A stretch of 64,000 nucleotides of DNA from Candidatus Eiseniibacteriota bacterium. Its GTDB lineage: Bacteria; Joyebacterota; Joyebacteria; Joyebacterales; Joyebacteraceae. Where the stretch lies: assembly GCA_030595835.1 (NCBI GenBank), contig JAUVLG010000003.1, positions 952-64,951 on the forward strand, in the 5' to 3' direction. The notes beneath the pieces are model-generated. The model saw only the letters and a list, made by a program, of their open reading frames with translations. It did not search any database and was not told the origin of the DNA. Below are positions 1 through 33,532 of this stretch, one piece after another. The first letter of the stretch is position 1; every line of letters starts with the position of its first letter. The position numbers were made by a program, and so were the translations under genes.

Positions 1-8
1 GGCACACG

Positions 9-197
9 CTACTCCTTCTCCTTCTCCTCCGCCACGATCTCCCTGCCGTTGTAGGTCCCGCAGTGGGGACACATCCTGTGAGGAAGCTTCGCTTCCCCGC
101 AGCTGGGGCAGACGGAGAGCGACGGGCGCGCTGCCTTCTCGTGGGTTCTGCGTTTGCGGCCCCTGGTCTTGGAGCTCTTTCTCTTTGGTACGGCCAT
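9..197 (-). CDS. rpmF: 50S ribosomal protein L32
   Basis: The 63-aa product [21 protein letters not shown]...CPSCGE...CPHCG has the classic L32 N-terminus and two CxxC pairs. A GGAGGG Shine-Dalgarno sequence lies 4 nt upstream of the ATG at 197. The ORF-track start at 212 sits inside that Shine-Dalgarno sequence and is probably not real. Confidence 0.9.
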
Positions 198-226
198 GAT
201 CCCTCCACGCATACAAATACGTTAGA

Positions 227-253
227 CTGCAGGGACCCCAGAGGCCCCTGCAG
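227..253 (-). terminator. Perfect 8-bp inverted repeat (ctgcaggg-N11-ccctgcag) between the stop of the fusion gene and rpmF; possible terminator or attenuator hairpin.
   Basis: The inverted repeat is visible in the sequence at 227-253. The downstream minus-strand sequence (agtctaacgtatttgtatg) is only moderately U-rich, so a terminator role is weakly supported. Confidence 0.3.
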
Positions 254-296
254 AGCATAACACTACGCGCCATACTAGGTTCGGCCAACGGTCAAG

Positions 297-3200
297 TCAA
301 GCGCTAACTCTGTGGCGCCGAACCACATGAGCCGGGAGTCCCGCCTCCTCGACCAATCTGGAGAAGCGAATCTCGATCGAATCGGTCCAGCGAGGATCAA
401 TAATCATGTATGGAGCATCCACGGACGGGATCGAGAGGTCGGCCGCGCCGTCAGGCGTCCTGAGACCTCCCTCATAAAGGGCCTCCCCACCCCAGCGAAG
501 ACCACCCGGAGGCAATTTCTCGGCCGGGTAGTCCGGCAGACCCAGCGCCGCTGCGAACTCCCCGCGGACGGCGGAAGGGTCGGTCGATCCGAGCTCGGCG
601 CCCAGCGCCGCCGCCAGCATCGAGACCAGCTCGAGGTCCGTCAGCCCGGCCGGAGGAGTGAGCGGCCCGGCCACGGTCTGAACCCTGCGCTCGCTGCTCG
701 TGAAGCTCCCCTGCGATTCCCCGGGGGCCGGCAAGGGCAGTATGCAGTCGGCGAGCGCGGTCGTCTCGGTCGGCACCGTGTCCGCGACCATCAGGAAGTC
801 GAGACCGCCGAGCAACTCCCGAACGCGGTCAGGGTCTTCCGCTCCCGACACCGGATCCTCCCCTACTATGAGCGCCGCCCGGATGGAGCCGGCGGCGAGT
901 TCCCTCGCCAGTCTTGCCGACTCGCGCCCGATTCCAAGATCGGACAGGCCCTGCCCGTTGGCGCGTGTCCGCGCGAACAGAACAAGCGGAGCCGCGCCGC
1001 TTGAACCCGTGATCACGGAGAGCGCGACAGCTAAGCCTGCGTCGCGCCCCGCGCTCGCGGCATCGAAGGAACCCAGATTAGCAATGAGAACGGCCTTCTC
1101 GGCCGCGACCAGTGCGTCCGCCACGTCTTCGAGAGTGCCGCCCGACACGGTGACATTCACTGACGATGCGCCAGCCAGCTTCGACAACTCCTCGAGCCCT
1201 CTGACCGCGAAGGGCGACGTCTTCCGGTCGGCCCCGCGCTCGAGAGCCCGCCCTGCCATCGTCAGAAGCACGTTCGAGAGCTGCCCATGCTCAGCCTGTA
1301 TCCAGACCCGGGCCATCTTCGACATTCTCGTCTCTACGGCTGAGACCACGACGAGATGCGCTCCATTCCTGACTGCCTTCCGGACCGAGATGCCCAGCAC
1401 GGTCTGCTCCTCGGCGATGTCCGAATCGAGCAGCAGGATGACGTCGGCGGACCTGACATCCTCGTAGGACGCCGTCGACGCGGGGTAGCCGAAGGTCCGC
1501 TCGAGTGCGGCGAAGACGCCGGCCTCGTGGACCAGTCCGTACGACCCGACGTTGACGGTGCCCAAACCTTCGCGACCCAGCCTGACCAGTCGGTGGGCCA
1601 CCTCGTTCGTGACGCGAGGGGAAACGAAGATCGCCACACCCTCGGGTCCGTATTCGTCTACGGCCGACTTCATTCTCTCCGCCACGCTCGCGACCGCGCG
1701 CTCCCAGGATGTCTCCTCGAGAACACCGTCGGTGCGAACAACCGGAGCCAGGAATCGGTCGTCTGCGGCCCACGGGCCGAAGCCGAAGCGGCCTCTGACG
1801 CAGAGATTCGTGTGCCCGTCGATGCTCGTGGGTGAAGGCGTGACCCTGTCCAGGATACCGCCGACCGTGTGCAGCGTAACGGAGCAGCCCGTGCCACAGA
1901 ATGTGCAGGTCGACGTCGTGGCGCGGCCCGCCCAGGGCCCCGGCTTCGGCAGGTCGATCACCTGGGAGAGCGCTGCAGTGGGGCACGTCGACACGCACTG
2001 CCCGCACGATTCGCACGTGGTTGCGGCCAGTGGCTTGTCGAGCCCCGGCTTCATCTGCGCGTGGAAGCCCCTCTTGAAGAACCCGAGCGCCTCGGCACCC
2101 TGCACCTCCTCACAGATGCGGACGCACCTGCCGCACAGTATGCATTTCTCGGGCTCCAATCGGATGAATGGATGCCGCGTATCCGGCGGGTCGTCAACAA
2201 TCTCTCCGCCGAAAACGCCGGCCGATGCGCCGTACTCCGCCGAATACTGGCGAAGCCTGCACGTGAAGGCGGAGGCACACCCGCATTCGAGACAGCGCTC
2301 GGTCTCGACCAGGGCCTGCTCCTCTGTGAAACCCAGCTCAACCTCGTCCATCGTACGGATGCGTTCCGCTACCGGAAGTTCCGGCATCTCCTGTCTCGGG
2401 ATCTTCACCACGTCCTTAAGCTCATCAGCGGGGAAGCTGTCCCACCGCTCCTTCTGGATGTTGAAGAAGGGTTCGGTGACACTGACGTCTTCTCCCCGGA
2501 GCAGCCGGTCTATCGCCTGGGCCGCCCGTCCTCCAGCCGCTATCGCCTCGATCGCGGTGGCGGCGCCCGTGACGACGTCGCCTCCGGCGAAGACACGAGG
2601 TACCGCGGTCGCGCCTGTTACCTCGTCGGCGACGATGGTGCCCCACCGCGTCAGCTTGAGCCGCGCCTCCAGCGAACTCCCGTCGCTCTCGACCGTGTCA
2701 CTGATGGCGGCGAGATCTGGCACCTGGCCGATGGCCGCGATGACGTTGTCGACCTCGATCGTCTTCTCTGAACCCTCGACGGGGACCGGGCGGCGCCGGC
2801 CGCTGTCGTCGGGCTCACCCAGTTCCATCTCAATGTATTCCAGGCGCTCGCAACGCCCGTCGCCCTCGATCTTCGTCGGAGCGGCGAGGAAGTGCATCTC
2901 GACGCCCTCGTGGAGCGCCGCCTCAACTTCAACATCCCACGCCGGCATCTCGGTCCTGGAGCGGCGATAGACCACGGTGACCTTCTCGGCCCCCAGTCTC
3001 AGGCTCGTCCTCGCCGCGTCGATGGCCGTGTTGCCGCCACCGATGATGGCGACGTGACGGCCGATCGTCACCTTCTCTCCGAGTCCCATCTTCTTGAGGA
3101 AATCGGTCCCGGACCACACGCCAGTAAGCGACTCGCCTTCCACTTTCATCAGACGGCTTCCCATCGCGCCCAAACCCAGGAAGACCGCGTCGTACCCGTC

Positions 3201-4031
3201 GCCGAAGAGATCCGCGAGCGTGAAGTCGCGCCCCATCGTCTTCCCGTATTGGATCTCAGCACCAAGGTCGGTGATGAGTCCCACCTCGGCATCCAGCGTC
3301 TCCTTGGGCAACCGGTACTCGGGGATGCCGTAGCGAAGCATGCCACCCGGCCCGGGGAGTGCCTCGAAGACGGTAACGTCATGGCCCTTCTGACGGAGGT
3401 AATAGGCCAGCGTGAGACTGGCGGGCCCCGCACCCACGGCCGCGACCTTCTTCCCGGTCGACGGCGGCACCGCCGGGCTGAAAGGGTCATCGTGCTGGAT
3501 GTCCCAGTCGGCGGCGAAGCGCTTCAAGTAGTCGATGGCCACCGGCTCGTCCACGGCGTTCCGACGGCACTCGGTCTCGCACGGCCGCGTACAAACGCGC
3601 CCGATGGAAAGCGGGAACGGGTTGACCTCCTTGACGAGCTTCGTGGCCTCGCGGTACTGCCCCTCCGCGATCAGAGCGATGTAGCCCTGAACATCCACGC
3701 CCGCGGGACACGCGGCCTTGCAGGGAGCGATGCAATCGCCGCGGTGATTCGATAGAAGGAGCTCGAGCGCCATCTTGCGGACCGCTCTGACGTCCTCGGT
3801 GTCGGTCCAGACCTTCATGCCCGGACTGACCTTCGTGCCACACGAGGGCACGTAGCGTCGCATGCCCTCCAGCTTGACGGCACAGAGCCAGCAGGACGTG
3901 AACGGCTCGAGCTGCTCGTCGTTGCACAGGGTCGGGATCTCCACACCGTTCGTCCGCGCGGCCTCGAGAATCGTGATCCCGCTCTCGACCTCTACGTCTT
4001 GTCCGTTCAGAGAAATTGTTACCAGGGCCAA
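297..4031 (-). CDS. 1244-aa multidomain FeS flavoprotein. It combines a NuoG-type N-terminal 2Fe-2S ferredoxin domain, a GltD-like NAD(P)H/FAD module (glutamate synthase small-subunit family), NuoG-type His/Cys-ligated 4Fe-4S clusters, and a C-terminal molybdopterin-oxidoreductase (formate dehydrogenase/NuoG-like) domain that appears catalytically degenerate.
   Basis: The N-terminus has C-x10-C-x2-C-x13-C (CNDEQLEPFTSCWLCAV...SC). Next comes a GltD N-terminal FeS region (GDCIAPCKAACPAGV ... GRVCTRPCETEC), followed by the dinucleotide-binding motif KKVAAVGAGPASLTLAYYL and a second Rossmann motif VAIIGGGNTAIDAA. After that come HPFIRLEPEKCILCGRCVRICEEVQG and CESCGQCVSTCP (NuoG-type clusters) and then CTFCGTGCSV...LCVRGRF (molybdopterin Fe4S4 domain). 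No Cys/Sec-His catalytic dyad is evident downstream, and there is no in-frame TGA. Confidence 0.8.
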   Translation of the reverse strand: MALVTISLNGQDVEVESGITILEAARTNGVEIPTLCNDEQLEPFTSCWLCAVKLEGMRRYVPSCGTKVSPGMKVWTDTEDVRAVRKMALELLLSNHRGDCIAPCKAACPAGVDVQGYIALIAEGQYREATKLVKEVNPFPLSIGRVCTRPCETECRRNAVDEPVAIDYLKRFAADWDIQHDDPFSPAVPPSTGKKVAAVGAGPASLTLAYYLRQKGHDVTVFEALPGPGGMLRYGIPEYRLPKETLDAEVGLITDLGAEIQYGKTMGRDFTLADLFGDGYDAVFLGLGAMGSRLMKVEGESLTGVWSGTDFLKKMGLGEKVTIGRHVAIIGGGNTAIDAARTSLRLGAEKVTVVYRRSRTEMPAWDVEVEAALHEGVEMHFLAAPTKIEGDGRCERLEYIEMELGEPDDSGRRRPVPVEGSEKTIEVDNVIAAIGQVPDLAAISDTVESDGSSLEARLKLTRWGTIVADEVTGATAVPRVFAGGDVVTGAATAIEAIAAGGRAAQAIDRLLRGEDVSVTEPFFNIQKERWDSFPADELKDVVKIPRQEMPELPVAERIRTMDEVELGFTEEQALVETERCLECGCASAFTCRLRQYSAEYGASAGVFGGEIVDDPPDTRHPFIRLEPEKCILCGRCVRICEEVQGAEALGFFKRGFHAQMKPGLDKPLAATTCESCGQCVSTCPTAALSQVIDLPKPGPWAGRATTSTCTFCGTGCSVTLHTVGGILDRVTPSPTSIDGHTNLCVRGRFGFGPWAADDRFLAPVVRTDGVLEETSWERAVASVAERMKSAVDEYGPEGVAIFVSPRVTNEVAHRLVRLGREGLGTVNVGSYGLVHEAGVFAALERTFGYPASTASYEDVRSADVILLLDSDIAEEQTVLGISVRKAVRNGAHLVVVSAVETRMSKMARVWIQAEHGQLSNVLLTMAGRALERGADRKTSPFAVRGLEELSKLAGASSVNVTVSGGTLEDVADALVAAEKAVLIANLGSFDAASAGRDAGLAVALSVITGSSGAAPLVLFARTRANGQGLSDLGIGRESARLARELAAGSIRAALIVGEDPVSGAEDPDRVRELLGGLDFLMVADTVPTETTALADCILPLPAPGESQGSFTSSERRVQTVAGPLTPPAGLTDLELVSMLAAALGAELGSTDPSAVRGEFAAALGLPDYPAEKLPPGGLRWGGEALYEGGLRTPDGAADLSIPSVDAPYMIIDPRWTDSIEIRFSRLVEEAGLPAHVVRRHRVSA

Positions 4032-4084
4032 TCTAGTTTCCTCTCCGGAGACACCGCGTCACCGCGCCTCCGCCTCTCGCCCGG

Positions 4085-5872
4085 TCAACTGACGATGACC
4101 GCCTCAAACTTGCACGCCTTCCGACACGCGTCGCACTTGGTGCACAGCTCAGTATCGATCACGTGCGGTCCCTTTCGCTCGCCCGAAACGGCGCCGACGG
4201 GACACGCGCGAACGCACAGCGTGCAGCCGATGCACTTGTCGGGATCGATCTCGTATGTCAGAAGAGGCTTGCACGTCAGCGCCGGGCAGCGCTTCTCGTG
4301 GATGTGCGCCTCGTATTCGTCGCGGAAGTACCTGATGGTTGTAAGCACCGGGTTGGGCGCGCTCTGCCCGAGACCGCACAGAGACGATGAGACGATCTGC
4401 TGTCCCAGTTCCTCGAGCCTCTCGATGTCGCCCTCTCGCCCTTCGCCTGAGGTTATCCTGTCGAGGATCTCAAGCATGCGCTTCGTACCGACACGGCAGA
4501 ACGTGCACTTGCCGCAGCTCTCGTCCTGCGTGAACTGCAGGAAGAACCGCGCGATGTCAACCATGCACGTTCGGTCGTCCATGACGACCATGCCACCGGA
4601 ACCCATGATGGCGCCGGTCTTCGTCACGGACTCGTAGTCGATCTTGATGTCGATGTGCTCTTCGGGAACGCAGCCACCCGACGGCCCACCCAGCTGGACG
4701 GCCTTGAACTTCCTGCCGTCGGGGATGCCGCCGCCGACCTCAAAGATGACGTCCCGAAGCGAGATCCCCATCGGGACCTCGACCAGGCCGCCGCGCACGA
4801 TCTTCCCGGTGAGTGCGAAGACCTTCGTTCCCTTGCTCGTCTCGGTACCGTACGCCGCGTATGCGGCGGCGCCGTTCGTGATGATCCACGGCACGTTGGC
4901 GTAGGTCTCAACGTTGTTGATGTTCGTGGGCTTCGCCCACAGGCCCTTGGCCGCGGGGAACGGCGGGCGCAATCTAGGCATGCCACGCTTGCCCTCGACA
5001 GACGCGATGAGCGCCGTCTCTTCGCCGCAGACGAAGGCCCCCGCGCCTTCCTTCACCTTGACGCGGAAACTAAACCCGGAGCCCAGGATGTCCATACCGA
5101 GGAAGCCGCGCTCCTCCGAATCGGCGATTGCCATCTTGAGTCGCCGGACGGCCAGGGGATACTCGGCCCGTGCATATATGTACCCCTCGGCAGCACCAAT
5201 GGCGTAGGCGGCGATCGTCAGCCCCTCGAGCACCGAGTGCGGGTCGCCCTCAAGAACGCTCCTGTCCATGAAGGCGCCCGGGTCGCCCTCGTCAGCGTTC
5301 ACGATGACGTACTTGACGTCCCCAGGCTGCTGTCGCGCCAGGTCCCACTTGACGCCGGACGGGAACCCGGCCCCCCCACGGCCCCTGAGCCCCGACGCCT
5401 TCATCGTGTCGACGATTTCCTCGGGAGTCATCTCGGTCAGCGCCTTCGTCAGACCCTCGTACCCGCCGGCTTCGATGTACTCATCGATGGACTCGGGGTC
5501 GATGAGCCCGGCGTTCCGAAGAACCAACCGCACCTGTCGGTCGTAGTAGGCCTCGTCCGGGAGCCTCTTCCCTTCCATGCGGACCGCGAACTCCTCGACG
5601 GGCTTCCCGCCGACGATGTGCTCTTGGACGATCCGCGCGACCTGCTCCTCCGTCACTCCCCCGTAGGTGACCCTGCCCAGTCCTTCGGTATCAACGTCGA
5701 CAAGCGGCTCGCGGTAGCACATGCCGATGCAGCCCGTACGCCGAAGCGGCGTGCTCAGCCCTCTCTCGTCGAACTCGCGTCGGAACGCTTCGTACACCTG
5801 CGCCGCGCCCGCTGCAACTCCGCAGCTGGACAGCCCGACGGTCACCCTGCTCGATGTGCTTTGGTCCGGCAT
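4085..5872 (-). CDS. NuoF/HydB/HoxF-family subunit (51 kDa family): NAD(H)-binding FMN-containing FeS protein with a C-terminal 2x[4Fe-4S] ferredoxin domain.
   Basis: The sequence GLRGRGGAGFPSGVKW matches the NADH/FMN site. ESCGKCTFCR is the SLBB/4Fe-4S cysteine motif. The C-terminus has CIGCTLCVRACP and CTKCDACRKAC. An N-terminal thioredoxin-like extension is present, as in HydB and HoxF. Confidence 0.9.
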   Translation of the reverse strand: MPDQSTSSRVTVGLSSCGVAAGAAQVYEAFRREFDERGLSTPLRRTGCIGMCYREPLVDVDTEGLGRVTYGGVTEEQVARIVQEHIVGGKPVEEFAVRMEGKRLPDEAYYDRQVRLVLRNAGLIDPESIDEYIEAGGYEGLTKALTEMTPEEIVDTMKASGLRGRGGAGFPSGVKWDLARQQPGDVKYVIVNADEGDPGAFMDRSVLEGDPHSVLEGLTIAAYAIGAAEGYIYARAEYPLAVRRLKMAIADSEERGFLGMDILGSGFSFRVKVKEGAGAFVCGEETALIASVEGKRGMPRLRPPFPAAKGLWAKPTNINNVETYANVPWIITNGAAAYAAYGTETSKGTKVFALTGKIVRGGLVEVPMGISLRDVIFEVGGGIPDGRKFKAVQLGGPSGGCVPEEHIDIKIDYESVTKTGAIMGSGGMVVMDDRTCMVDIARFFLQFTQDESCGKCTFCRVGTKRMLEILDRITSGEGREGDIERLEELGQQIVSSSLCGLGQSAPNPVLTTIRYFRDEYEAHIHEKRCPALTCKPLLTYEIDPDKCIGCTLCVRACPVGAVSGERKGPHVIDTELCTKCDACRKACKFEAVIVS

Positions 5873-5894
5873 CCTTATCCTCTTGGTCAGCTGG

Positions 5895-6413
5895 TCACGC
5901 CTTCGCGCCGCCCTCGTCCCCGGCGGTTCCGTAGTTCCTCACGATGTCTCTGGCCTGCTCTGGCGTCAGCCGGCCGAAGGTGTCCTCGTCGATCATGATG
6001 ACGGGCGCCAGGCTGCAGCAGCCCAGGCAAGCCACCGTCTCCACGGTGAACTTCCCGTCCTCGGTGGTGCCGCCCTCGGCGACACCAAGCTCGTCACAGA
6101 CGGCCTCCACCACATCGACGGCCCCCTGCACGTGGCAGGCGGTGCCCTCACACACCCTGATGATGTGCCTGCCCACCGGCTCGAACCGGAACTGCGAGTA
6201 GAAACTCGCGACGCCGAAGATGCGGGCGGGCGGCACGCCGGAGCGTTCAGCGATCCGCTCCATGATGACAGGCGGAAGATAGCCGATCTCTTCCTGGACC
6301 TGCTGGAGCATCGGGATCAGTGCGCCGCGCAATGTGCTGAATTCCGCCACGATACGATCGACTACGGAGAGCTGCTCGGGCGTCGCCACGTCCGGGCCTG
6401 CGGTGTTCGCCAT
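5895..6413 (-). CDS. NuoE/HydC/HoxE-family 2Fe-2S thioredoxin-fold subunit (24 kDa family).
   Basis: The motifs CEGTACHVQGA and CLGCCSLAPV are typical of NuoE. The start ATG (MANTAGPD) overlaps the ndk stop as ATGA, with GGAGGA immediately upstream. The Arg-rich part of the ORF-track translation upstream of that start is probably not translated. Confidence 0.85.
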   Translation of the reverse strand: MANTAGPDVATPEQLSVVDRIVAEFSTLRGALIPMLQQVQEEIGYLPPVIMERIAERSGVPPARIFGVASFYSQFRFEPVGRHIIRVCEGTACHVQGAVDVVEAVCDELGVAEGGTTEDGKFTVETVACLGCCSLAPVIMIDEDTFGRLTPEQARDIVRNYGTAGDEGGAKA

Positions 6414-6883
6414 CAGTCCTCCCGGTCCCCGCCGCCCACGTCCTTGAGAGCGTCGGCGGTCAGGGTTCTGGGGCAATCCTCGAAGTAGAAGCGTGCCTCG
6501 TGCTCGATTCTCTCCGTCGAGTCCGACGCGTGAACCGCGTTCTCGCGGAGGCTCCTTCCATACAGCGCCCGGACCGTGCCGGGCTCGGCCTCCGCCGGGT
6601 TCGTCGCACCGATCAGTTCCCTGAGGACCGGAATGCCCGGCCCGTTCAGAAGCAGTCCGACGGTCATCCCGGATGTGATGAAGTCGATGAGGGGGTCGAA
6701 GAAGGGCTTGTCCTTGTGCACGTTGTAGAGGAGGCCGGCCTCGTCGGCGGTGAGCCTGCGCGATGCGATGCCCACAATGGAAAAACCCGCTCGCTCGACG
6801 GCCGCCACTATGTCACCGATGTGCCCATCGCTGACCGCACACGGCTTGATCATCAGGAATGCCATCGACGCATCAGGCTTCAT
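6413..6883 (-). CDS. ndk: Nucleoside diphosphate kinase.
   Basis: AFLMIKPCAVSDGHIGDIV matches the NDK N-terminus, and NVHASDS is the region containing the active-site His. The start is ambiguous: ATG at 6883 (MKPDAS, overlapping the upstream gene) or ATG at 6865 (MAFLMIKP). Confidence 0.85.
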   Translation of the reverse strand: MKPDASMAFLMIKPCAVSDGHIGDIVAAVERAGFSIVGIASRRLTADEAGLLYNVHKDKPFFDPLIDFITSGMTVGLLLNGPGIPVLRELIGATNPAEAEPGTVRALYGRSLRENAVHASDSTERIEHEARFYFEDCPRTLTADALKDVGGGDRED

Positions 6884-7427
6884 TGCGAGCTTCTCTCGCA
6901 GCAGTCCTGCCCAGCTCAAGAGCCTTCTCGTTTATCGACTCCGTGCCCTTCGGCACTCGCTCGAGAACCGCCGCCCGGAGGCTCTCCCACTGGACGACCC
7001 CGGTGAGTTCGCCGACCGCGCCAAGCGCGACGACATTCGCGAAGAGCTTTCGACCGCACTCCTCGAGCGCGAGCATTGTGAAGGGGATCCCGATCGCACC
7101 CGGGTGCTCGACACGCTCGACGAGATACGAGTCGACGATGAGAATGCCGCCTTCGCGCAGCGAAGGAAGGTACTCATCGAGAGACGCCTGGCTCATTGCG
7201 AGCAGCACATCGACCCGTGTCGCCTTGGGGTAGTCTATCTCGCCGTTGGATATCACGACGTCCGTCTTGCTCTTGCCACCGCGGGCCTCGGGCCCGTAGC
7301 TCTGCGTCTGCACCGCGTTCTTACCGTCGTACACGGCCGCCGCCGCGAGCAGCTTGCCCGCGAGCATCGCGCCCTGCCCTCCGGCGCCCGAGAGCCTGAT
7401 CTCGTACCTGTCTGCCTCGCCCGTCAC
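6873..7427 (-). CDS. 2-Oxoacid:ferredoxin oxidoreductase, gamma subunit.
   Basis: EIRLSGAGGQGAMLAGKLLA is the typical POR/KOR gamma N-terminus. The gene is the last of the delta-alpha-beta-gamma set. Confidence 0.85.
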   Translation of the reverse strand: MTGEADRYEIRLSGAGGQGAMLAGKLLAAAAVYDGKNAVQTQSYGPEARGGKSKTDVVISNGEIDYPKATRVDVLLAMSQASLDEYLPSLREGGILIVDSYLVERVEHPGAIGIPFTMLALEECGRKLFANVVALGAVGELTGVVQWESLRAAVLERVPKGTESINEKALELGRTAAREARNEA

Positions 7428-7464
7428 GCTCGAACCCTCACGGTCTTGCGCGCCTCCGCCGGCG

Positions 7465-8370
7465 CTAGCCGTCCCCCAACTTCAGGCCATCGGCCATCTC
7501 ATCGTAGGCCTGGATCATCTTCCTGACGTTCGCGACCACCGCCGGATCGGCCGACACGCGCTCGGCCATCTCATCGTAGGACTGGATGAACTCCGGCTTG
7601 TCGGACTCGACCATGATCCCGCGCGTGAACTTGCCCTCGAGATCGGCGGCGTCCATACGCTCGGCCGCCTTGATGGAGACCGAGTTGTCACGCATCCACT
7701 CTAGCATGGCCACGGGCGACGCGAACTTGTTCATCCGGCCGTAGCTTGTATGGCAGTTCGAGATGATCTCCACCACCGAGAAGCCCTTGTGCCGAATGGC
7801 CTTCTCTATGAGAACACCTGCTTCCCTCGCGTGGTACACGGAACTCCTGGCTACGAAGGTCGCCCCGGCTCCCACGGCGAGCGCGGTCGTGTCGAACGCG
7901 TACTCGATGTTGCCGTACGGCGCCGTGGTGCCCCGCTTGCCGTGCGGCGTCGTCGGGGAGTACTGCCCGCCGGTCATGCCGTATATCTGGTTGTTGGCGA
8001 CGATCGCCGTCATGTCTATGTTCCTGCGGCAGGCGTGTATGAAGTGATTGCCGCCGATGGCCAGTGCGTCGCCGTCCCCCATCGCAGCGATGACGGTCAG
8101 CTCTGGCCTGGCCAGTTTCACGCCTGTGGCAAACGCAAGACCGCGACCGTGAGTCGTGTGCAGTGTATTGAAATCAACGTAGGTCGGCATGCGGCCGGTG
8201 CATCCGATACCGGAAACGACGGCGACCTTGTTCTTGTCAACACCGATGGCGGCAATGGCCCGCAACATCGCGCTCATTATGATGCCGAGCCCACATCCGC
8301 CGCACCACACGGTCGGCAGTTTCTTGTGGGGACGTAAGTAAGTCCGCGCGACCTCGATGGCCTGGCTCAT
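7465..8370 (-). CDS. korB: 2-Oxoacid:ferredoxin oxidoreductase, beta subunit (TPP-binding).
   Basis: WCGGCGLG is the N-terminal Cys motif and GDGDALAIGGNHFIHACRRN is the TPP-binding signature. Confidence 0.9.
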   Translation of the reverse strand: MSQAIEVARTYLRPHKKLPTVWCGGCGLGIIMSAMLRAIAAIGVDKNKVAVVSGIGCTGRMPTYVDFNTLHTTHGRGLAFATGVKLARPELTVIAAMGDGDALAIGGNHFIHACRRNIDMTAIVANNQIYGMTGGQYSPTTPHGKRGTTAPYGNIEYAFDTTALAVGAGATFVARSSVYHAREAGVLIEKAIRHKGFSVVEIISNCHTSYGRMNKFASPVAMLEWMRDNSVSIKAAERMDAADLEGKFTRGIMVESDKPEFIQSYDEMAERVSADPAVVANVRKMIQAYDEMADGLKLGDG

Positions 8371-9518
8371 CGTCCGGCTGCCTCCATCGTGAAATCAGCG
8401 ATCTCGTCGGGTGTGAAGAGATCTCCGTCCACCTTGCCGAGCGCCCTGACGTCAGCGGCGCCGCAGATGGTGCGCTCTACCTCGAGCGAGAGCTGTCCCA
8501 GGTTCATCTCCGGCACAACGACGAGTTCAAGCTGACCAGCCAGCTCCCTGAGCCGAGCGCCGGAGAACGGCCAGATCGTCCGTGCCCGCAGAAGACCCGC
8601 GCGCACGCCACGCTTCCGGAGTTCCCTCACGGACGACTTCGCCACCCGCGCTGTTGACCCGTATGCGAACAACAGGATGTCCGCGTCATCGAGCATGAAC
8701 TCCTCGTACGAAGCCAGCTCGTCGGCGCAGCCCTCTATCTTGTTGACAATCCCTCGTATCTTGAGATCAACCTCTTCCTTCACCATCGTCGGGAAGCCCC
8801 TCGCGTCGTGCGTGAGCCCGGTGACGTGGAATCTGTGTTCCCCCCCGAAGGCCGCCAACGGAGGCAGTGACTCCCCCTCGCAGCTGCAGTAAGGGCAGTA
8901 CTCGGCTCTCCCCGCGTCGGGTTGCCGCCTGGGTTCCACACGGTACGTCGTTGGCGCCGGGAGCATAACGCTCTCACGCATGTGTCCGATGACCTCGTCG
9001 GACAGGAGCACGACGGGCGTTCGATAACGCTCCGCCAGGTTGACGCAGTCCACGGTCATCGTGAAGCACTCGAGGACCGAGGAAGGTGCGAGCGCGATCA
9101 TCGCGTGATCACCATGAGTTCCCCAACGCGCCTGCTGGACGTCAGCCTGCGCCGGCTGCGTTGGAAGACCTGTCGAGGGCCCCGCCCTCTGGACGTTGAC
9201 GATGACACACGGCACCTCGGCTATCGCCGCGAAGCCGATGTTCTCCTGCATGAGCGAGAAGCCCGGGCCGCTGGTCGCCGTCATTACCTTGGCTCCCGCG
9301 AGAGCCCCTCCGACAATTGCGGCCATGGAGGCTATCTCGTCTTCCATCTGTATGAAGCGGCCACCCATCAGCGGAAGGCACTGCGACATGACCTCGGCGA
9401 TCTCGGACGACGGCGTTATCGGGTAGCCCGCAAAGAAGTTCACGCCGGCCGCGAGCGCGCCCACCGCGCAGGCTTCGTTGCCCTGAAGGATCTGCTTCTT
9501 CATCGCGGACTCACTCAT
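8367..9518 (-). CDS. korA: 2-Oxoacid:ferredoxin oxidoreductase, alpha subunit.
   Basis: The product starts MSESAMKKQILQGNEACAVGALAAG...YPITPSSEI. The ATG at 9518 overlaps the stop of the ferredoxin gene as ATGA. The longer ORF-track N-terminus has no homology. Confidence 0.9.
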   Translation of the reverse strand: MSESAMKKQILQGNEACAVGALAAGVNFFAGYPITPSSEIAEVMSQCLPLMGGRFIQMEDEIASMAAIVGGALAGAKVMTATSGPGFSLMQENIGFAAIAEVPCVIVNVQRAGPSTGLPTQPAQADVQQARWGTHGDHAMIALAPSSVLECFTMTVDCVNLAERYRTPVVLLSDEVIGHMRESVMLPAPTTYRVEPRRQPDAGRAEYCPYCSCEGESLPPLAAFGGEHRFHVTGLTHDARGFPTMVKEEVDLKIRGIVNKIEGCADELASYEEFMLDDADILLFAYGSTARVAKSSVRELRKRGVRAGLLRARTIWPFSGARLRELAGQLELVVVPEMNLGQLSLEVERTICGAADVRALGKVDGDLFTPDEIADFTMEAAGR

Positions 9519-9812
9519 TGGCCACGCTTCCCTGAACCTTCGGATTTCACCGGGCGCACCTTCTGCACGGTTATCGCCATGTCCGGACACAGGATCTCGC
9601 AGAGACCGCACGCGGTGCACGCATCCGGATTCGACACGATCGGCAGACCCGACTTGTCGGACGTGAACACACCGCGCGGGCACATCGAGTAGCATATGCC
9701 ACAGGATTTGCACCACTTCTCGTATATGAAGACAGCGTCGTCCGGATGCTCGGAAGCGTCAGGGTAGTGCCACTGCCGCCTGCCAGCCTCGGACTTCGCT
9801 CCCTTGTCAACC
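9515..9812 (-). CDS. 2-Oxoacid:ferredoxin oxidoreductase, delta subunit (2x[4Fe-4S] ferredoxin).
   Basis: Only the C-terminal roughly 100 aa of the ORF-track entry is ferredoxin-like (CKSCGICYSMCP and CTACGLCEILCP). Its ATG is at 9812 (MVDKGAK). The rest of the track ORF is an Arg-rich alternative frame that overlaps sucD. Confidence 0.8.
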
Positions 9813-9813
9813 A

Positions 9814-10689
9814 TCACTTCCTCCCGAGGGCCGCAGCGACCAGGCCCGGTATGTCGCTCGGCCTGTCGGCCACGGGGATCCCGGCCTCGCTCAGCGCCTT
9901 GATCTTGTCCTGGGCCGTACCCTTGCCGCCGGCGATGATCGCGCCCGCGTGCCCCATTCGCTTCCCCGGTGGGGCCGTGCGCCCGGCGATGAAGCTGACG
10001 ACCGGCTTGTCGAGATGCGCTGTGACAAATTGCGCCGCCTGCTCCTCGTCGGTTCCGCCTATCTCCCCGATGAGAACAACGACCTCGGTCTGCGGATCCG
10101 CTTCGTACGCGGTCAGCGCATCGATGAAGCTGGTCCCGATTATGGGGTCGCCGCCTATGCCCAGCACCGTCGACTGCCCCAGTCCGCTGCGCCTCAACTG
10201 CTCGACGACTTCGTACGTCAGCGTGCCGCTCCGCGAGACCACGCCAACCGGCCCCGGAGAGTGAATCCACCCTGGCATGATGCCGACCTTGGCCTTTCCG
10301 GGACTGATGACGCCCGGGCAGTTGGGCCCTATCATCCTCGTCCCCAGCTCGCTGAGCCGCTGACATACCTTGGCCACGTCCAGCGTCGGTATCCCCTCGG
10401 AGATGGTGACCACGAGGTCCACGCCTGCCTCCGCCGCCTCGATGATGGCGGGCGCGGCGAAGCGCGCGGGAACGAACGTGATGCTCGTGTTCGCTCCGGT
10501 CTCGCGGACGGCGCCGGCCATCGTGTCGAACACGGGAACTCCGTGTACCGACTGGCCACCCTTGCCCGGCGTCACACCACACACGACGTTCGTGCCGTAG
10601 TCTATCATCCCCTTCGCCTGGAACGTGCCGTCGCGCCCGGTGATCCCCTGGACGCAGAGTCGCGTGTCAGCATTGACGAAGATGCTCAC
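9814..10689 (-). CDS. sucD: Succinyl-CoA synthetase, alpha subunit.
   Basis: The protein aligns with SucD over its full length ([29 protein letters not shown] with the phospho-His region). Confidence 0.95.
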
Positions 10690-11825
10690 GAGTCCCTCCC
10701 CGCCAGCACGACCGCCTTCTCGACGGCCTCGTCCAGGGTGTCGGCCGTCATCAGGTCATGCTCCGCCAGAATGCGCCTGGCCTCTTCCGCGTTGGTGCCC
10801 GTCAGACGCACCACAATGGGGACGTCGGTGGCCACGCGCTCCAGGGCGTGAACGAGCCCGCGCGCAACATCGTCGCACCTTGTGATACCACCGAAGATGT
10901 TTATGAGTAACGATCTCACGTTGGGATCGCTCGTGATGATCTCAAGAGTGGTGGCAACCTTGTCGGAGTTCGAGCTCCCGCCGACATCCAGGAAGTTCGC
11001 CGGCTCGCCACCGTACTGCTTGATGAGGTCCATCGTCGTCATCGCCAGCCCCGCGCCGTTAACCAGGCAACCGACGTTCCCGTCCAGCTTCACGAACGAC
11101 ATCCCCAACTCGCGCGCCTTCGTGAGCTCGGCCGTATCGGTCGACGTGTCGCGCATGGCAGCGATGTCCTCGTGCCGGTAGAGCGCGTTGTCGTCGATGT
11201 TCATCTTCGCATCGATGGCCCGCACGACACCCTCGGAGGTAACGACGAGGGGATTGATCTCCGCCAGTGACGCATCACTCCCGACGAAGGCCGCGTAGAG
11301 CTTCAGGATGGCATCGGCCACCTGCGCCGCAACCGAGGGCTCGGACTCGATCTTCGCCGCGAGCTCCGCGGCCTCCGCATCGGAGAGCCCACGTTCCGGA
11401 TCGACGGGGTGTTTGTGGATCTTTTCGGGCGTCTCACTGGCTACAACCTCGATGTCCACACCGCCTTCGCTGCTGACCATGTAGACGGGCTTCTTCGTCG
11501 CCCTGTCGACAACGATCCCGATGTAGTACTCACGATCGATATCGACGACCTCAGCGACGACGACCTTCTCGACGGTGAGTCCCTTGATGTCCATGCCAAG
11601 GATACCCTCGGCGAGTCGCTCGGCCTCGTCGGCATCCCGCGCCAGCTTGACACCGCCGGCCTTGCCCCTGCCTCCGACGTGAACCTGCGCCTTGACGACG
11701 ACGCTGCCCCCGCGCTTCTCCGCGGCCGCACGCGCTTCTTCGGGACTCGTTACCACGTCGAACCCTGACACCGGCAGGCCGTATCTGGCGAAGATCTCCA
11801 TGGCCTGGTACTCGTGTATCTTCAA
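10686..11825 (-). CDS. sucC: Succinyl-CoA synthetase, beta subunit (ATP-grasp).
   Basis: The N-terminus [19 protein letters not shown] is typical of SucC. The start is probably TTG at 11825, with GGAGG 7 nt upstream. The gene overlaps sucD by 4 nt. Confidence 0.9.
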
Positions 11826-11897
11826 GAGGCTGCCTCCAGACGTCCACACTTGGAGAACCGTGCGCTCTCCACGCGGCCGCCCGTCAGTACCGGACTG

Positions 11898-13208
11898 CTA
11901 GAAGAAGTCACCCAGAACATCCTCGAGTGTGGGGCTGCCCTTGACCTCAAGGTCATATCTCACGCGAACACTCGGTCTTTCGATGTCAATGACCTTCCTG
12001 AGATCGATCGGCGTCCCGATGACCACGTAGTCGCAGTCGACGGCGTTGACGGTCGTCTGCAGATCGGCCACCTGCTCAGGGCTGTAGCCCATGGCAGGCA
12101 GTAGCGTACCGATGCCCGGGTATTTCTTGTAGGTCTCGGCCATCTTGCCGACGGCGTGCTCTCTCGGATCCACGAGTACGGCTCCGGCCGCGGATGCGGC
12201 CACCGTACCGGCGCCGAGCTTCATCCCGCCGTGGGTGAGCGTCGGACCGTCCTCGATCACTAGCACGCGCTTGCCGGCCAGATCGACGTCCTGGTCAAAC
12301 ACGGTCGGCGAGTTGGCGTGGATGATCGTGGCGGCAGGATTGACCGATTCGATGTTCAGCAACAACTGGTCTATGTCCGCCTGACTCGCGGAGTCCTCCT
12401 TGTTTATGACGACGACGTCCGCCATCCGCAGATTCTGCTCGCCCGGGTAGTAGCTGAGCTCGTGGCCCACACGATGTGGGTCCGCGACGACGATGAGGAG
12501 GTCGGGCGCGTAGAACGACGCATCGTTGTTACCGCCGTCCCACATGATGACATCCGCCTCTTTCTCTGCCTCTTCGAGGATTCTCCCGTAGTCGACACCG
12601 GCAAAGACGACGATGCCCTTGTCGATGTGCGGCTCGTACTCCTCCATCTCCTCGATCGTGCACTTGTGCTTGATCATGTCGTCGTACTCGCCGAAGCGCT
12701 GCCAGATCTGCTCCCTCAGGTCTCCGTACGGCATCGGGTGTCGGATGGCCGCGACCTTCTTGCCGTGCTCGATGAGTATCTCCGCCACTCGGCGCGACGT
12801 CTGGCTCTTGCCGCACCCGGTGCGAACCGCGCACACGGACACGACCGGCTTCTTGGATTTGATCATCGTATCTTCCGCGCCCATCAACACGAAGTGAGGA
12901 CCGGCCGCGTTCACCATGGAACACTTGTGCATCACGTACTCGTGAGGCACGTCGCTGTACGCGAAGACGACGTCATCGATCTTCGAATCGGCCATCAGCT
13001 TCCCGAGGTCCTCCTCGGGAACGATGGGTATGCCCTGCGGATAGAGAGAGCCGGCAAGTTCCGTGGGATACGCGCGTCCGGCAATGTCGGGAATCTGCGT
13101 TGCAGTGAAAGCGACTACCTCGAACTCCTCGTGGTCTCTGTAAACGAGATTGAAGTTGTGGAAGTCCCTTCCGGCAGCACCCATGATGACAACACGTCGT
13201 CTCTGCAT
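11898..13208 (-). CDS. COG2403-family predicted GTPase (cyclic 2,3-diphosphoglycerate synthetase-like).
   Basis: MQRRRVVIMGAAGRDFHNFN is the hallmark N-terminus of this family, and a P-loop-like CGKSQTS is present. The start is ATG at 13208, with the Shine-Dalgarno sequence ccaGGAGGttgg upstream. This is a family assignment from memory, not from a search. Confidence 0.55.
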   Translation of the reverse strand: MQRRRVVIMGAAGRDFHNFNLVYRDHEEFEVVAFTATQIPDIAGRAYPTELAGSLYPQGIPIVPEEDLGKLMADSKIDDVVFAYSDVPHEYVMHKCSMVNAAGPHFVLMGAEDTMIKSKKPVVSVCAVRTGCGKSQTSRRVAEILIEHGKKVAAIRHPMPYGDLREQIWQRFGEYDDMIKHKCTIEEMEEYEPHIDKGIVVFAGVDYGRILEEAEKEADVIMWDGGNNDASFYAPDLLIVVADPHRVGHELSYYPGEQNLRMADVVVINKEDSASQADIDQLLLNIESVNPAATIIHANSPTVFDQDVDLAGKRVLVIEDGPTLTHGGMKLGAGTVAASAAGAVLVDPREHAVGKMAETYKKYPGIGTLLPAMGYSPEQVADLQTTVNAVDCDYVVIGTPIDLRKVIDIERPSVRVRYDLEVKGSPTLEDVLGDFF

Positions 13209-13463
13209 CCAACCTCCTGGAATCGAACCGTCGCCGCGCACCGCACCGGCGGCCTTCATTGCCGCCCGCGCCATTCGCAAGAGAATCCCCCATGCCGACC
13301 TCGCTCGTGAGCGCGGCCGTGCGGAGGATCCGGAAGCGGAGCTATGTAGATAGAGGCTCCGAGCGAGTCAAGATGACCATGATACTCGATGGTCCCCGGG
13401 GATGTCCAGAGTCAAAGCGAAGATACGGACATGAATGGCCCTCGGTGGCTCGGTCGGGTTCCC

Positions 13464-13946
13464 TCAACCCTTGTCCGAGTCTAGTATCCTCGCGATCATG
13501 CCTCGCGTCGAACGTCCCTCAAGCTCCTCGACGGCGACGACCTTCCCACCGTGATCCTCGACGAAGTCCGCCCCGACGATCGTATCCCGCTCGTAGCCGG
13601 CGCCCTTTACGAGGATATCGGGAACGACGCCTGTAATGAGTTCGAGTGGCGTGTCCTCGTCAAACAGGCAGACCAGGTCGACCGAGGACAGGGCCGCTAC
13701 GACATGTGCCCTGTCGTCCTCGGGCACGATAGGCCGGGTCTCACCCTTCAGGGCCCGGACCGAGCGGTCGGTATTGATGCCCACGACCAGGACGTCTCCA
13801 AGCGCCTTCGCCTCAGCGAGATACTGCGTGTGCCCGCGGTGTATGATGTCGAAGCAGCCGTTCGTAAACACAACGACCCGGCCCTCGGCGCGCGCATCGG
13901 CTGTTGCTGTGATGAGATCCTCGCGAGAGACGACCTTACCCAACAC
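13464..13946 (-). CDS. D-glycero-beta-D-manno-heptose 1-phosphate adenylyltransferase (HldE C-terminal domain homolog, cytidylyltransferase fold).
   Basis: VVFTNGCFDIIHRGHTQYL carries the (H/T)xGH nucleotidyltransferase motif. The start is probably GTG at 13946, with GGAGGGGGAG upstream. It overlaps the upstream kinase ORF by about 11 nt in a different frame. Confidence 0.8.
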   Translation of the reverse strand: MLGKVVSREDLITATADARAEGRVVVFTNGCFDIIHRGHTQYLAEAKALGDVLVVGINTDRSVRALKGETRPIVPEDDRAHVVAALSSVDLVCLFDEDTPLELITGVVPDILVKGAGYERDTIVGADFVEDHGGKVVAVEELEGRSTRGMIARILDSDKG

Positions 13947-14946
13947 GCTCCCCCTCCCCGGCGTCCTTGAACGAGCGCTCGATCGCGGCCGGTCCGACGG
14001 AAACGGTCCCGACCTCCCTGATGACGAGACCGGCCGCGTGGTTCGCGATGATCGCGGCCTCTTCCATGGAAGCGCCCACCGCCAGTGCGACGGCCAGTAC
14101 ACTGACCACTGTGTCGCCCGCGCCCGTCACGTCAAACACCTCTCGAGCGACCGTCGGAAGATGTACAAGCTCACCGTCCGACATGAAGAGCGACATGCCC
14201 TGTTCGCCTCTCGTGACCGCAACGCACTCGGCCCCGAGCTGCTTCTGGAGCTTCCACCCCACGCTGAGCAACGTGTTCTCATCGGTGATGGTGACGCCGA
14301 CCGCCGTTCCCGCTTCCTTCTCATTCGGCGTGATCGCCGTCACGCCCACGTAGCTCGCGAAGTGCGACTCCTTGGGATCAACGCAGATCATCTTCCCAGC
14401 GTCCCGCGCCATGGATATCGCCGCCGCGATCGTCGTCCGCGTGACCACACCTTTGCCGTAGTCTGAGACAATGAGCACGTCGGAATCCGCCACGGCTCTC
14501 CTGAGCCCGTCCAGGATCCTCGTCTCAACGTCACCCTCTATGTCGGAAGTAACCTCGCTGTCTGCTCTGACAACCTGCTGGCTGCGCGCGATCACGCGCA
14601 GCTTCGTCGTCGTAGACCGCCCCGGCTCAGTCACCACGCTGTCCACGTCGACGCCTCTTCCGGTCAGGAGCGAGAGCACCTCGCGGCCCGCGTCGTCGTC
14701 CCCGACAATACCCACGAGCACCGCGCGCGCTCCCAGGGAAGCGACGTTCTCGGCGACGTTTGCGGCGGCGCCGAACCTTGCGCTCTCGCGTTCAACCTCG
14801 ACGATCGGCACCGGGGCCTCCTGCGAGATCCTGTTCACCGCACCCCACAGGTAGCGGTCGAGCATGATGTCGCCCAGGATGGCCACCTTCGCACGCGAGA
14901 ATCCACCGAGCAGCGTTCTCAGCCGCGTGGCGTCGAGGTTCGTCAC
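13936..14946 (-). CDS. D-glycero-beta-D-manno-heptose-7-phosphate kinase (HldE N-terminal domain homolog, PfkB ribokinase family).
   Basis: VAILGDIMLDRY, the NVAENVA region and the C-terminal DVTGAGDTV motif match PfkB-family carbohydrate kinases. Confidence 0.85.
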   Translation of the reverse strand: MTNLDATRLRTLLGGFSRAKVAILGDIMLDRYLWGAVNRISQEAPVPIVEVERESARFGAAANVAENVASLGARAVLVGIVGDDDAGREVLSLLTGRGVDVDSVVTEPGRSTTTKLRVIARSQQVVRADSEVTSDIEGDVETRILDGLRRAVADSDVLIVSDYGKGVVTRTTIAAAISMARDAGKMICVDPKESHFASYVGVTAITPNEKEAGTAVGVTITDENTLLSVGWKLQKQLGAECVAVTRGEQGMSLFMSDGELVHLPTVAREVFDVTGAGDTVVSVLAVALAVGASMEEAAIIANHAAGLVIREVGTVSVGPAAIERSFKDAGEGERVG

Positions 14947-30765: not shown

Positions 30766-31460
30766 CCGTTCCCTCCGTGGGCTCCCCGGGCGCTCGGGAT
30801 CCGAGCGCCGGTGGTCGTCCGGTGGCCGGCCATCCGCACGATTCTCGGGATAACGGCCGGCGCCAGCACCACAAACACGATCGTGTTGGACACAAGATGC
30901 ACGATGGAGAAGAACGCGTTCGACAGGATCACTGCCAGTGCTCCGGTGCGAAACTCGGGGCTCATCACTGCCAGACCCACAATGACGGCGGCCTGATAGA
31001 CGGCGGTCAGGACGAAACCCAGCCCGCCTGCTACCAGGGGTAGAGCCCGGTGGCCTCCGCCGGCTCGGCCAACCGCCGCCGCGTCGAGCGACCCTCCCTG
31101 ACCCGAGACCCCCTTGGCCGTGCCGCGCCACAGAGGAGCCGTGATACCACCTACCAGCCCTGTGAACGCCGACGCCGCGAGCTGCGCCGCCAGCATCGTG
31201 GGCACACCAAGTCCCGACCCGTAAGGATTGGCTCCGGAGTAGATGGCCATGGCGAGCACACCAACGAGCGCGCCGCGCCACCGGCCCAGGACCACGCCGG
31301 ACACGAAGATCGTGAACGTCACGAGTTCGACGTTTGGCACGGACAGAAGGAGAAAACCAAGCGCGGCCGCCAGGGCGACGAAGATGGCCGTGACGGCCGT
31401 CCCCGAGGTCCACAGCGCGCGCCCGGAATCCCGGGAGCTAGTCAAGTTTCTCTCGCTCAT
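30762..31460 (-). CDS. Polytopic membrane protein, possibly an ECF-transporter S-component-like or BioY-like protein.
   Basis: It has about 5-6 hydrophobic helices (AVTAIFVALAAALGFLLL, FTIFVSGVVLG, AMAIYSG...). The start is tentatively MSERNLT at 31460. Confidence 0.45.
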   Translation of the reverse strand: MSERNLTSSRDSGRALWTSGTAVTAIFVALAAALGFLLLSVPNVELVTFTIFVSGVVLGRWRGALVGVLAMAIYSGANPYGSGLGVPTMLAAQLAASAFTGLVGGITAPLWRGTAKGVSGQGGSLDAAAVGRAGGGHRALPLVAGGLGFVLTAVYQAAVIVGLAVMSPEFRTGALAVILSNAFFSIVHLVSNTIVFVVLAPAVIPRIVRMAGHRTTTGARIPSARGAHGGNG

Positions 31461-33454: not shown

Positions 33455-33476
33455 TCGCACCTCCAAGAAGTTTGAT

Positions 33477-33532
33477 CGGATCTCAGTCGTACCGCCCGGA
33501 TCTCAGTCGTGCCGCCCGGATCTCAGGCCGCG
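33477..33532. repeat. 20-bp tandem repeat (cggatctcagtcgtRccgcc), about 2.6 copies, overlapping the hutI stop codon.
   Basis: Two full copies lie at 33477-33496 and 33497-33516, with a partial copy at 33517-33532 that contains the hutI TGA (tca at 33523-33525). Confidence 0.8.

Follow-up and report, generated by a model that had tools for sequence, protein, structure and literature searches.

We analyzed a 64,000-nt stretch of DNA (hereafter the window) from a Candidatus Eiseniibacteriota (Eisenbacteria) bacterium (GenBank assembly GCA_030595835.1, contig JAUVLG010000003.1, positions 952 to 64,951 of the forward strand), with a focus on three minus-strand genes at positions 297 to 6413 that encode a NuoE-like, a NuoF-like, and a 1244-aa subunit. 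The three genes very probably encode an StnABC/NfnABC transhydrogenase (Nfn-Bfu, Type 1 BfuABC), and the function of the complex is most likely that of an NADH-dependent reduced-ferredoxin:NADP+ oxidoreductase. All three subunits match characterized enzymes of this family over their full lengths, the domains of the large subunit stand in the same order, and every cofactor ligand is conserved. The enzyme type, its architecture, its inactive molybdopterin domain, and its mechanism are already known from enzymes purified from three organisms and from three cryo-electron microscopy (cryo-EM) structures. What is new is an uncharacterized member from an uncultured phylum and its conserved gene neighborhood, and of these only the context is mildly new. 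As the enzyme type, architecture, and mechanism were previously published, the finding carries little weight as a discovery.

The three genes are adjacent and co-directional, with intergenic spacers of 22 and 53 nt, and their order (NuoE-like, NuoF-like, GltD-NuoG fusion) is that of stnABC. The NuoE-like gene (stnA/nfnC, BfuC; 5895..6413, minus strand) encodes 172 aa from an ATG start, and its longest mechanical open reading frame (ORF) extends to a TTG at 6476. The NuoF-like gene (stnB/nfnB, BfuB; 4085..5872, minus) encodes 595 aa. The large-subunit gene (stnC/nfnA, BfuA; 297..4031, minus, stop codon at 297-299) starts at a TTG preceded by the ribosome-binding site GGAGAGG. An earlier note on this DNA had placed three ORFs at these coordinates, and they hold, on the minus strand. 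GC content at third codon positions (GC3) is 0.80-0.84 in the three genes (window GC 65%), which indicates that they are real coding genes. Going forward, we refer to the genes by their stn names.

In a search of the PDB, the large subunit matched NfnA of Caldicellulosiruptor saccharolyticus (9bov_A, 1178 aa; E 1.4e-261, query residues 1-1227 against 1-1171) and StnC of Sporomusa ovata (8oh5_C, 1172 aa; E 1e-240, query residues 1-1223 against 1-1165). The NuoF-like subunit matched 9bov_B (E 3.4e-269) and 8oh5_B (E 1.2e-265), both over residues 9-594, and the best matches of the NuoE-like subunit were the NfnC proteins 9n5u_C (4e-51) and 9bov_C (2e-49), and StnA (8oh5_A, 3e-47). In the printed alignments, the large subunit shows 51% identity to the C. 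saccharolyticus protein and 49% to that of S. ovata over residues 2-585; its formate dehydrogenase (Fdh)-like half is 34% identical (C. saccharolyticus), and the NuoF-like subunit reaches 66% and 64%, respectively. These full-length matches of all three subunits strongly support the assignment to the Stn/Nfn-type NADH/ferredoxin/NADPH bifurcating family that the earlier note had proposed. The same note had regarded the 1244-aa subunit as an unusual and undescribed combination of parts, whereas StnC and NfnA have the same order of parts and match it end to end. That claim to novelty fell because it was built on a mistaken view of the third Stn subunit as HydA-like: the published StnC is a GltD-NuoG fusion (PMC7483475), the window protein has no H-cluster domain, and all three subunits show close full-length homology to a characterized enzyme. 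A HydABC-type third subunit was likewise rejected, as the Pfam scan contains no Fe-hydrogenase large-subunit domain and only the N-terminal iron-sulfur (FeS) part is HydA-like.

The Pfam scan also bore out the stack of domains described in the earlier note for the 1244-aa protein. Residues 1-95 (3747..4031, minus) form a NuoG/HydA-type N-terminal [2Fe-2S] domain (Fer2_4, residues 3-78, E 6e-18) with the ligands C36, C47, C50, and C64, which carry identical numbers in the aligned C. saccharolyticus and S. ovata proteins. Residues 96-565 (2337..3746, minus) are an inserted GltD/NfnL-like domain (Fer4_20, 101-180; Pyr_redox_2, 195-500). This domain includes the HxxxCxxxCxxxCP motif (H96-C108), two [4Fe-4S] clusters, and two Rossmann motifs, GAGPAS (200-205) for flavin adenine dinucleotide (FAD) and GGGNTA (331-336) for NADPH, the latter followed by Y355-R356-R357. 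K170 is a ligand of the cluster proximal to the FAD. The proximal-cluster ligands C108/C147/C151/K170 have the same numbering in C. saccharolyticus NfnA, where they are the ligands of the A7 cluster (PMC11829005). The NuoG-type FeS region follows at residues 566-750 (1782..2336, minus; Fer4_Nqo3, 621-688; Molybdop_Fe4S4, 704-750), with the ligand sets C580/C583/C585/C591, C630/C633/C636/C640, C673/C676/C679/C683, and C709/C712/C716/C744. The remainder, residues 751-1244 (300..1781, minus), is a degenerate Fdh/NuoG-like molybdopterin-fold domain (Molybdopterin, 759-1128, E 9e-27). The large subunit contains both junction motifs, HxxxCxxxCxxxCP and CxxCxCx5C.

Most of the cysteines in the large subunit (26 of 28) align one-to-one with FeS ligands of C. 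saccharolyticus NfnA and S. ovata StnC; those in the N-terminal and GltD-like parts are C36/47/50/64 and C100/104/108/147/151/155. Together with H96 and K170 they amount to 28 ligands, enough for one [2Fe-2S] and six [4Fe-4S] clusters. Conservation was assessed in an alignment of 82 full-length environmental homologues of the large subunit, in which all 28 ligands, R240 (R239 in S. ovata), and Y355-R356-R357 are invariant. Residue 114 (window about 3690-3692) is a Val. In S. ovata, C114 modulates the Lys-ligated cluster and its replacement by Ala loses 50% of the activity, and variants at the position have been noted (PMC10482914). We rejected the change from C114 to Val as a distinguishing feature, given those variants and the presence of Val, Ile, or Ala in 82/82 environmental homologues. 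Judging from this alignment, a Cys at position 114 may be a peculiarity of the Firmicute enzymes.

The NuoF-like protein (Pfam Complex1_51K, NADH_4Fe-4S, and Fer4, the last a C-terminal 2x[4Fe-4S] domain) is a predicted NuoF/HydB-like subunit that binds flavin mononucleotide (FMN) and NAD(H), with the FMN loop GLRGRGGAGFP at residue 161. It has the ligands of cluster B1 (C453/C456/C459/C499) and the eight cysteines of the ferredoxin domain (C547-C587; B3/B4), and its N-terminal thioredoxin-like domain keeps the 3Cys+Glu site C17/C48/C52/E55 (B5). C436, C529, C534, and H523 are conserved candidate 3Cys+His ligands of Zn. All of these sites aligned with residues of the C. saccharolyticus and S. 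ovata proteins. The NuoE-like protein has the NuoE/HydC-like thioredoxin fold (2Fe-2S_thioredx, PF01257, E 2e-52) with the [2Fe-2S] ligands C88, C93, C129, and C133.

Residues 751-1244 of the large subunit evolve fastest, with 21-29% identity to a distant group versus 52-55% in the N-terminal and GltD-like parts. The catalytic Cys386-His387 of the Rhodobacter capsulatus formate dehydrogenase FdsA aligns to H835-E836, and position 835 is hypervariable (L/R/V/A/S/G/H), with Cys in 0/82 homologues. The ORF has no in-frame TGA, which excludes selenocysteine. Molydop_binding (PF01568) was not detected in the large protein (Pfam, E <= 0.01), and alignments with formate dehydrogenases (FDHs) end before this domain. 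An AlphaFold model of residues 566-1244 (pLDDT 85, pTM 0.88) shows no beta-barrel at the C-terminus. By Foldseek E-value, the nearest structures to this model are 8oh5_C and 9bov_A, with a TM-score normalized to the query (TMq) of 0.80, and true FDHs and NuoG come next. A remnant RxxxNxQG motif is conserved (R1021, N1025, Q1027, G1028; ARTRANGQG), where formate dehydrogenases carry their active-site Arg in RGQNNVQG; the pterin-free S. ovata StnC has the remnant too, so it does not tell a functional site from an inactive one. Genes for molybdenum-cofactor biosynthesis (moeA, mobA, fdhD), which the earlier note had thought worth seeking across the genome, were looked for within the 64-kb window, and none is among its annotated ORFs.

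The homologues show the same loss. S. ovata StnC is a 126-kDa fusion of GltD-like and NuoG-like parts, in which the C-terminal FdhF-like part is inactive and holds the tetramer together (PMC7483475, PMC10482914). Its annotation prompted an assay of the S. ovata enzyme for formate:methyl viologen activity, which was absent (PMC7483475). C. saccharolyticus NfnA consists of N-terminal, NfnL-like, and Fdh/NuoG-like domains, and its pterin site is incomplete and lacks pterin density (PMC11829005). Altogether, the molybdopterin-like domain is a probable non-catalytic scaffold and oligomerization domain. The earlier observation that no catalytic Cys or Sec is apparent in it is confirmed, while the suggestion that came with it, an NAD(P)H-linked enzyme acting on an unknown substrate at this domain, is not supported.

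By homology to the cryo-EM structures (PMC10482914, PMC11829005, PMC12018979), the complex would catalyze a reversible, bifurcating or confurcating, cytoplasmic reaction, 2 NADPH + NAD+ + Fd(ox) <-> 2 NADP+ + NADH + Fd(red), where Fd is ferredoxin. Electrons from NADP(H) would enter at the non-bifurcating FAD in the GltD-like domain of the 1244-aa subunit, and would then reach the NuoF-like subunit one at a time, first by way of the proximal [4Fe-4S] cluster with its Lys ligand and then along a linear FeS chain. The predicted bifurcation site (“flavobicluster”) consists of FMN, the neighboring [4Fe-4S] cluster B1, and the NuoE-like [2Fe-2S] cluster C1. NAD(H) would react at the FMN, and low-potential electrons would exit to ferredoxin via B3/B4 in the C-terminal 2x[4Fe-4S] domain of the NuoF-like subunit. 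The molybdopterin-like domain, with neither pterin nor active site and with two off-pathway [4Fe-4S] clusters, would serve as a structural and oligomerization scaffold. The enzymes of S. ovata, C. saccharolyticus, and T. sibiricus have been reported to show NAD+-dependent NADPH:ferredoxin oxidoreductase activity with tight coupling, in both directions (PMC7483475, PMC11829005, PMC9304861), and bifurcating transhydrogenase activity, absence of pterin density, and tetramerization via the Fdh-like domain have been described in homologues (PMC7483475, PMC10482914, PMC11829005). The activity of the window enzyme and its oligomeric state, which for the long bacterial form would be a tetramer of heterotrimers, are predicted from these homologues.

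Among the known systems, NfnABC of C. saccharolyticus (9BOV, 9BP5; PMC11829005) has the same three subunits in the same domain order, is the best PDB match for the large and NuoF-like subunits, and shares the 3Cys+Glu site of NfnB. Relative to its NfnA, the window protein is ~66 aa longer, with insertions in the GltD-like and Fdh-like parts, and C114 is replaced by Val; the source is an uncultured Eisenbacteria-type organism rather than a thermophilic Firmicute, and the gene neighborhood differs. StnABC of S. ovata (8OH5, 8OH9; PMC7483475, PMC10482914) has the same stnA-stnB-stnC order, and its StnC, like the window protein, is a GltD/NuoG fusion with six [4Fe-4S] clusters, a single [2Fe-2S] cluster, plus an inactive FdhF-like domain. 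The two share K170, R239 (R240 in the window), and the RxxxNxQG remnant. The S. ovata stn genes adjoin a Wood-Ljungdahl/metVF cluster (PMC7483475), whereas those in the window come after sucCD-korDABC-ndk. The archaeal NfnABC of Thermococcus sibiricus (9N5U; PMC12018979) belongs to the same family, has the same BfuBC core, and is the best match for the NuoE-like subunit. Its NfnA (955-963 aa) is shorter by ~200 aa, with neither the helix bundle nor the tail of the Fdh-like domain, and the heterotrimer is monomeric. The window protein represents the long bacterial type, and its match to archaeal NfnA covers only residues 3-780.

More distant relatives share some of the parts. The NAD+-dependent FdsABG formate dehydrogenases (R. 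capsulatus 6TG9; C. necator) also have NuoE/NuoF-like partners, and the window protein aligns with them across the NuoG-type FeS region and the beginning of the molybdopterin fold. However, FdsA is without the GltD insertion and has Cys386-His387, Molydop_binding, and molybdenum-bis(pyranopterin guanine dinucleotide), while the window protein has H835-E836 and no such domain. The classical NfnAB/NfnSL enzymes (T. maritima, P. furiosus; 4YLF, 5JCA) catalyze the same net reaction, and their NfnB/NfnL subunit is a homologue of the GltD-like domain in the window protein (E 2e-98). In NfnAB, bifurcation takes place at the NfnB FAD and the partner subunit is small and FNR-like, whereas the window enzyme has NuoE/NuoF-like partners and, by homology, an FMN/FeS bifurcating core (PMC10482914). 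Membership in this classical group was rejected, as the GltD-like domain is embedded in a 1244-aa protein rather than being a free-standing protein of ~470 aa.

The stnABC genes form the 3' end of a minus-strand ten-gene cluster, sucC-sucD-korD-korA-korB-korC-ndk-stnA-stnB-stnC, in which most junctions are 1-4-nt start/stop overlaps and the remaining spacers are 7-53 nt. The first two genes encode the beta and alpha subunits of succinyl-CoA synthetase (sucC, 10686-11825, ORF to 11849; sucD, 9814-10689; both minus), and both score above the cutoffs of their NCBIfam equivalog models (504 and 426 bits, respectively). They are followed by korD (9515-9814), korA (8367-9518), korB (7465-8370), and korC (6873-7427), all on the minus strand. 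korD, whose product is a small 2x[4Fe-4S] ferredoxin-like protein of the KorD/OorD type, is contained in a larger mechanical ORF (9515-10582). Its start codon shares 1 nt with the stop codon of sucD, and at the other end its stop codon runs into the start of korA (ATGA). Pfam matches of korDABC are POR_N, PFOR_II, TPP_enzyme_C, POR, and Fer4. In NCBIfam, the Kor alpha subunit exceeds the cutoff for 2-oxoacid:acceptor oxidoreductase, and the best match of the beta subunit is the 2-oxoglutarate type. This set is probably a four-subunit 2-oxoacid:ferredoxin oxidoreductase with 2-oxoglutarate as the substrate (2-oxoglutarate:ferredoxin oxidoreductase, OGOR).

Upstream of stnA, the earlier note had overlooked a 150-aa gene, ndk (nucleoside diphosphate kinase; 6413..6865, minus; Pfam NDK, E 1e-38). 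We had considered the 459-nt “gap” between korC and the NuoE-like gene as a regulatory region or RNA, and rejected this because it is the conserved ndk, which is kept at this position in 19 related loci. The TGA stop of ndk overlaps the stnA ATG by 1 nt (TGATG), and the two genes are predicted to be translationally coupled. The ten-gene order as a whole is found in about 20 loci of Candidatus Eisenbacteria and related metagenome-assembled genomes (MAGs), down to 60% StnC identity; the nearest relatives are Eisenbacteria MAGs (83-87%).

This linkage suggests that Nfn-Bfu shares ferredoxin with OGOR. Because the stn genes close the sucCD-korDABC-ndk-stnABC cluster, the enzyme probably exchanges ferredoxin with OGOR. 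When 2-oxoglutarate is oxidized, it could combine Fd(red) and NADH to produce NADPH; in the opposite direction, it could provide the Fd(red) needed to make 2-oxoglutarate. We found no description of the sucCD-korDABC-ndk-stnABC linkage in the literature on Nfn-Bfu that we examined, and in a literature search combining Eisenbacteria with transhydrogenase, ferredoxin, and 2-oxoglutarate, none of the results listed mentioned Eisenbacteria. Elsewhere in the window, a histidine-utilization set (31920-36570, minus) comprises urocanase, an imidazolonepropionase-like amidohydrolase, and a split formiminotransferase/cyclodeaminase; these genes would feed glutamate and 2-oxoglutarate towards the kor-suc-stn cluster.

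At the downstream end, a 12-bp GC-rich hairpin (227..253, minus; -27.7 kcal/mol, z = -5.1 versus shuffles), spotted by eye and then folded, lies ~45 nt past the stnC stop and probably marks where the operon ends. It has no clean T-run and was for that reason missed by the consensus terminator scan. Counts from the consensus promoter and terminator scan of positions 1-14000 were no better than in shuffles, so the scan is uninformative for the operon, and an Rfam scan of the whole window at gathering thresholds gave no matches. Beyond stnC there is a sigma-70-like site (300..272) and a 62-aa ORF (9-197, minus; MAVPKRK...), which, from its motif, is a candidate for ribosomal protein bL32 (rpmF). 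On the other side of the cluster, 48 nt upstream of sucC, lies a 460-aa ORF (11898-13280, minus) with coding-like GC3, a sub-threshold CobW match, and no Pfam family above threshold; its end is conserved in related loci.

Several points weigh against the StnABC/NfnABC assignment. Identity to the characterized enzymes is moderate (~43% over the whole large subunit, 34% in its Fdh-like half), the C114 of S. ovata and C. saccharolyticus is a Val in the window protein, the assignment of the Eisenbacteria proteins is a prediction from sequence and a structural model, and the physiological direction and the coupling to OGOR are drawn from synteny only. In addition, the original description of the related T. 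litoralis NsoABC was that of an NADPH-dependent sulfur oxidoreductase (as cited in PMC7483475), so family members can show other activities in vitro. That homologue, and the high non-physiological NADPH:viologen activities of purified Stn/Nfn enzymes (PMC7483475, PMC11829005), would fit a non-bifurcating or otherwise specialized NADPH oxidoreductase of the same family, either an Nso-like NADPH:sulfur/polysulfide reductase or an NADPH:ferredoxin reductase, in which the NuoEF-like part is only a wire or an NADH site. We consider this very unlikely: the whole BfuBC core is conserved (FMN site, B1, C1, B3/B4, and the thioredoxin-like N-terminal 3Cys+Glu site), the NuoF-like subunit shares 64-66% identity with subunits for which bifurcation is proven, and later work has established an Nso-related archaeal short form as a genuine Nfn-Bfu (PMC9304861, PMC12018979). 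Even less credible is an NAD(P)+-linked Mo/W formate dehydrogenase or other molybdopterin oxidoreductase with a catalytic C-terminal domain, from which the GltD and NuoEF parts would pass electrons to pyridine nucleotides. Such an enzyme would account for the Molybdop_Fe4S4 and Molybdopterin matches, the superposition of the model of the C-terminal half on the matching part of true FDHs (TMq 0.78-0.83), the naming of database homologues as “formate dehydrogenase major subunit,” and the conserved RxxxNxQG remnant. Yet S. ovata StnC, with neither pterin nor formate:methyl viologen activity, retains this remnant as well (PMC7483475, PMC10482914, PMC11829005). We rejected the formate dehydrogenase reading for lack of a Cys/Sec-His dyad (H835-E836 takes its place, in-frame TGA is absent, and the “active-site” position 835 is hypervariable and Cys in 0/82), for lack of a Molydop_binding beta-barrel, and with no Mo-cofactor genes among the annotated ORFs of the 64-kb window.

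A further alternative keeps the family and changes its partner. For the predicted Por-Bfu enzymes, it has been proposed that each gene cluster specifies one enzyme (PMC9304861), and by analogy OGOR and Nfn-Bfu could form one assembly in which OGOR docks and injects electrons directly, e.g., via the dead-end FeS branch of the Fdh-like domain. The tight packing of sucCD-korDABC-ndk-stnABC, kept in about 20 loci down to 60% StnC identity, is in line with this, as are the off-pathway clusters of the Fdh-like domain, to which the structural studies assigned no definite role (PMC10482914, PMC11829005). On the other hand, the large subunit has its own third-substrate site (NADPH/FAD), so that the Type 1 enzyme is complete as it stands, OGOR comes with a ferredoxin-like delta subunit, as is usual for free-standing enzymes, ndk sits between the kor and stn gene sets, and the synteny is equally explained by co-regulation of enzymes that draw on one soluble ferredoxin pool. 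Such an assembly is therefore highly improbable. The broader idea that the Eisenbacteria Nfn-Bfu is a dedicated and possibly physically associated partner of OGOR, i.e., a ferredoxin-channeling 2-oxoglutarate-to-NAD(P)H module with the dead-end FeS branch as the docking or entry point, is a speculative one that we regard as unlikely; if true, it would represent a new “Kor-Nfn-Bfu” type beside the predicted Por-Bfu enzymes. An StnABC/NfnABC transhydrogenase that probably shares a ferredoxin pool with OGOR is the reading that we prefer.

Homologues with the same Pfam architecture as the large subunit are abundant (of 8000 candidates scored, 7999 reached E <= 1e-20), and full-length relatives occur in Syntrophorhabdales, Aminicenantes, Acidobacteriota, and Thermoanaerobaculaceae. 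In databases, JGI calls these homologues “formate dehydrogenase major subunit,” and NCBI calls them “molybdopterin-dependent / FAD-dependent oxidoreductase”; for the large subunit, all NCBIfam models score below their cutoffs (best PRK12814, 706 bits vs cutoff 916). The naming of StnC/NfnA proteins looks like a systematic misannotation. Given these names and the lack of an NCBIfam model above its cutoff, metabolic reconstructions may credit Eisenbacteria and other uncultured phyla with formate metabolism in error and overlook a ferredoxin-linked source of NADPH. The phyla with Nfn-Bfu listed in PMC9304861 are Firmicutes, Euryarchaeota, Synergistetes, and Bacteroidetes, and the window extends the range to a phylum beyond that list. 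The link to OGOR, succinyl-CoA synthetase, and ndk also provides a testable idea on how ferredoxin is recycled in a ferredoxin-dependent segment of the tricarboxylic acid (TCA) cycle.

The rest of the window includes a type IX secretion neighborhood (50765-59113, minus) with a PorV-like outer-membrane protein (54012-55049), a PorU/gingipain-like C25 peptidase of 1351 aa (55058-59113), and an FG-GAP protein of 1065 aa that carries a Por_Secre_tail sorting domain. These genes fit a host from the Fibrobacterota-Chlorobiota-Bacteroidota (FCB) superphylum. Two further long minus-strand ORFs, 28891-31413 (840 aa) and 44614-48033 (1139 aa), have coding-like GC3 and no Pfam family, and the 840-aa ORF has an unusually high GC content at codon position 2 (0.60).

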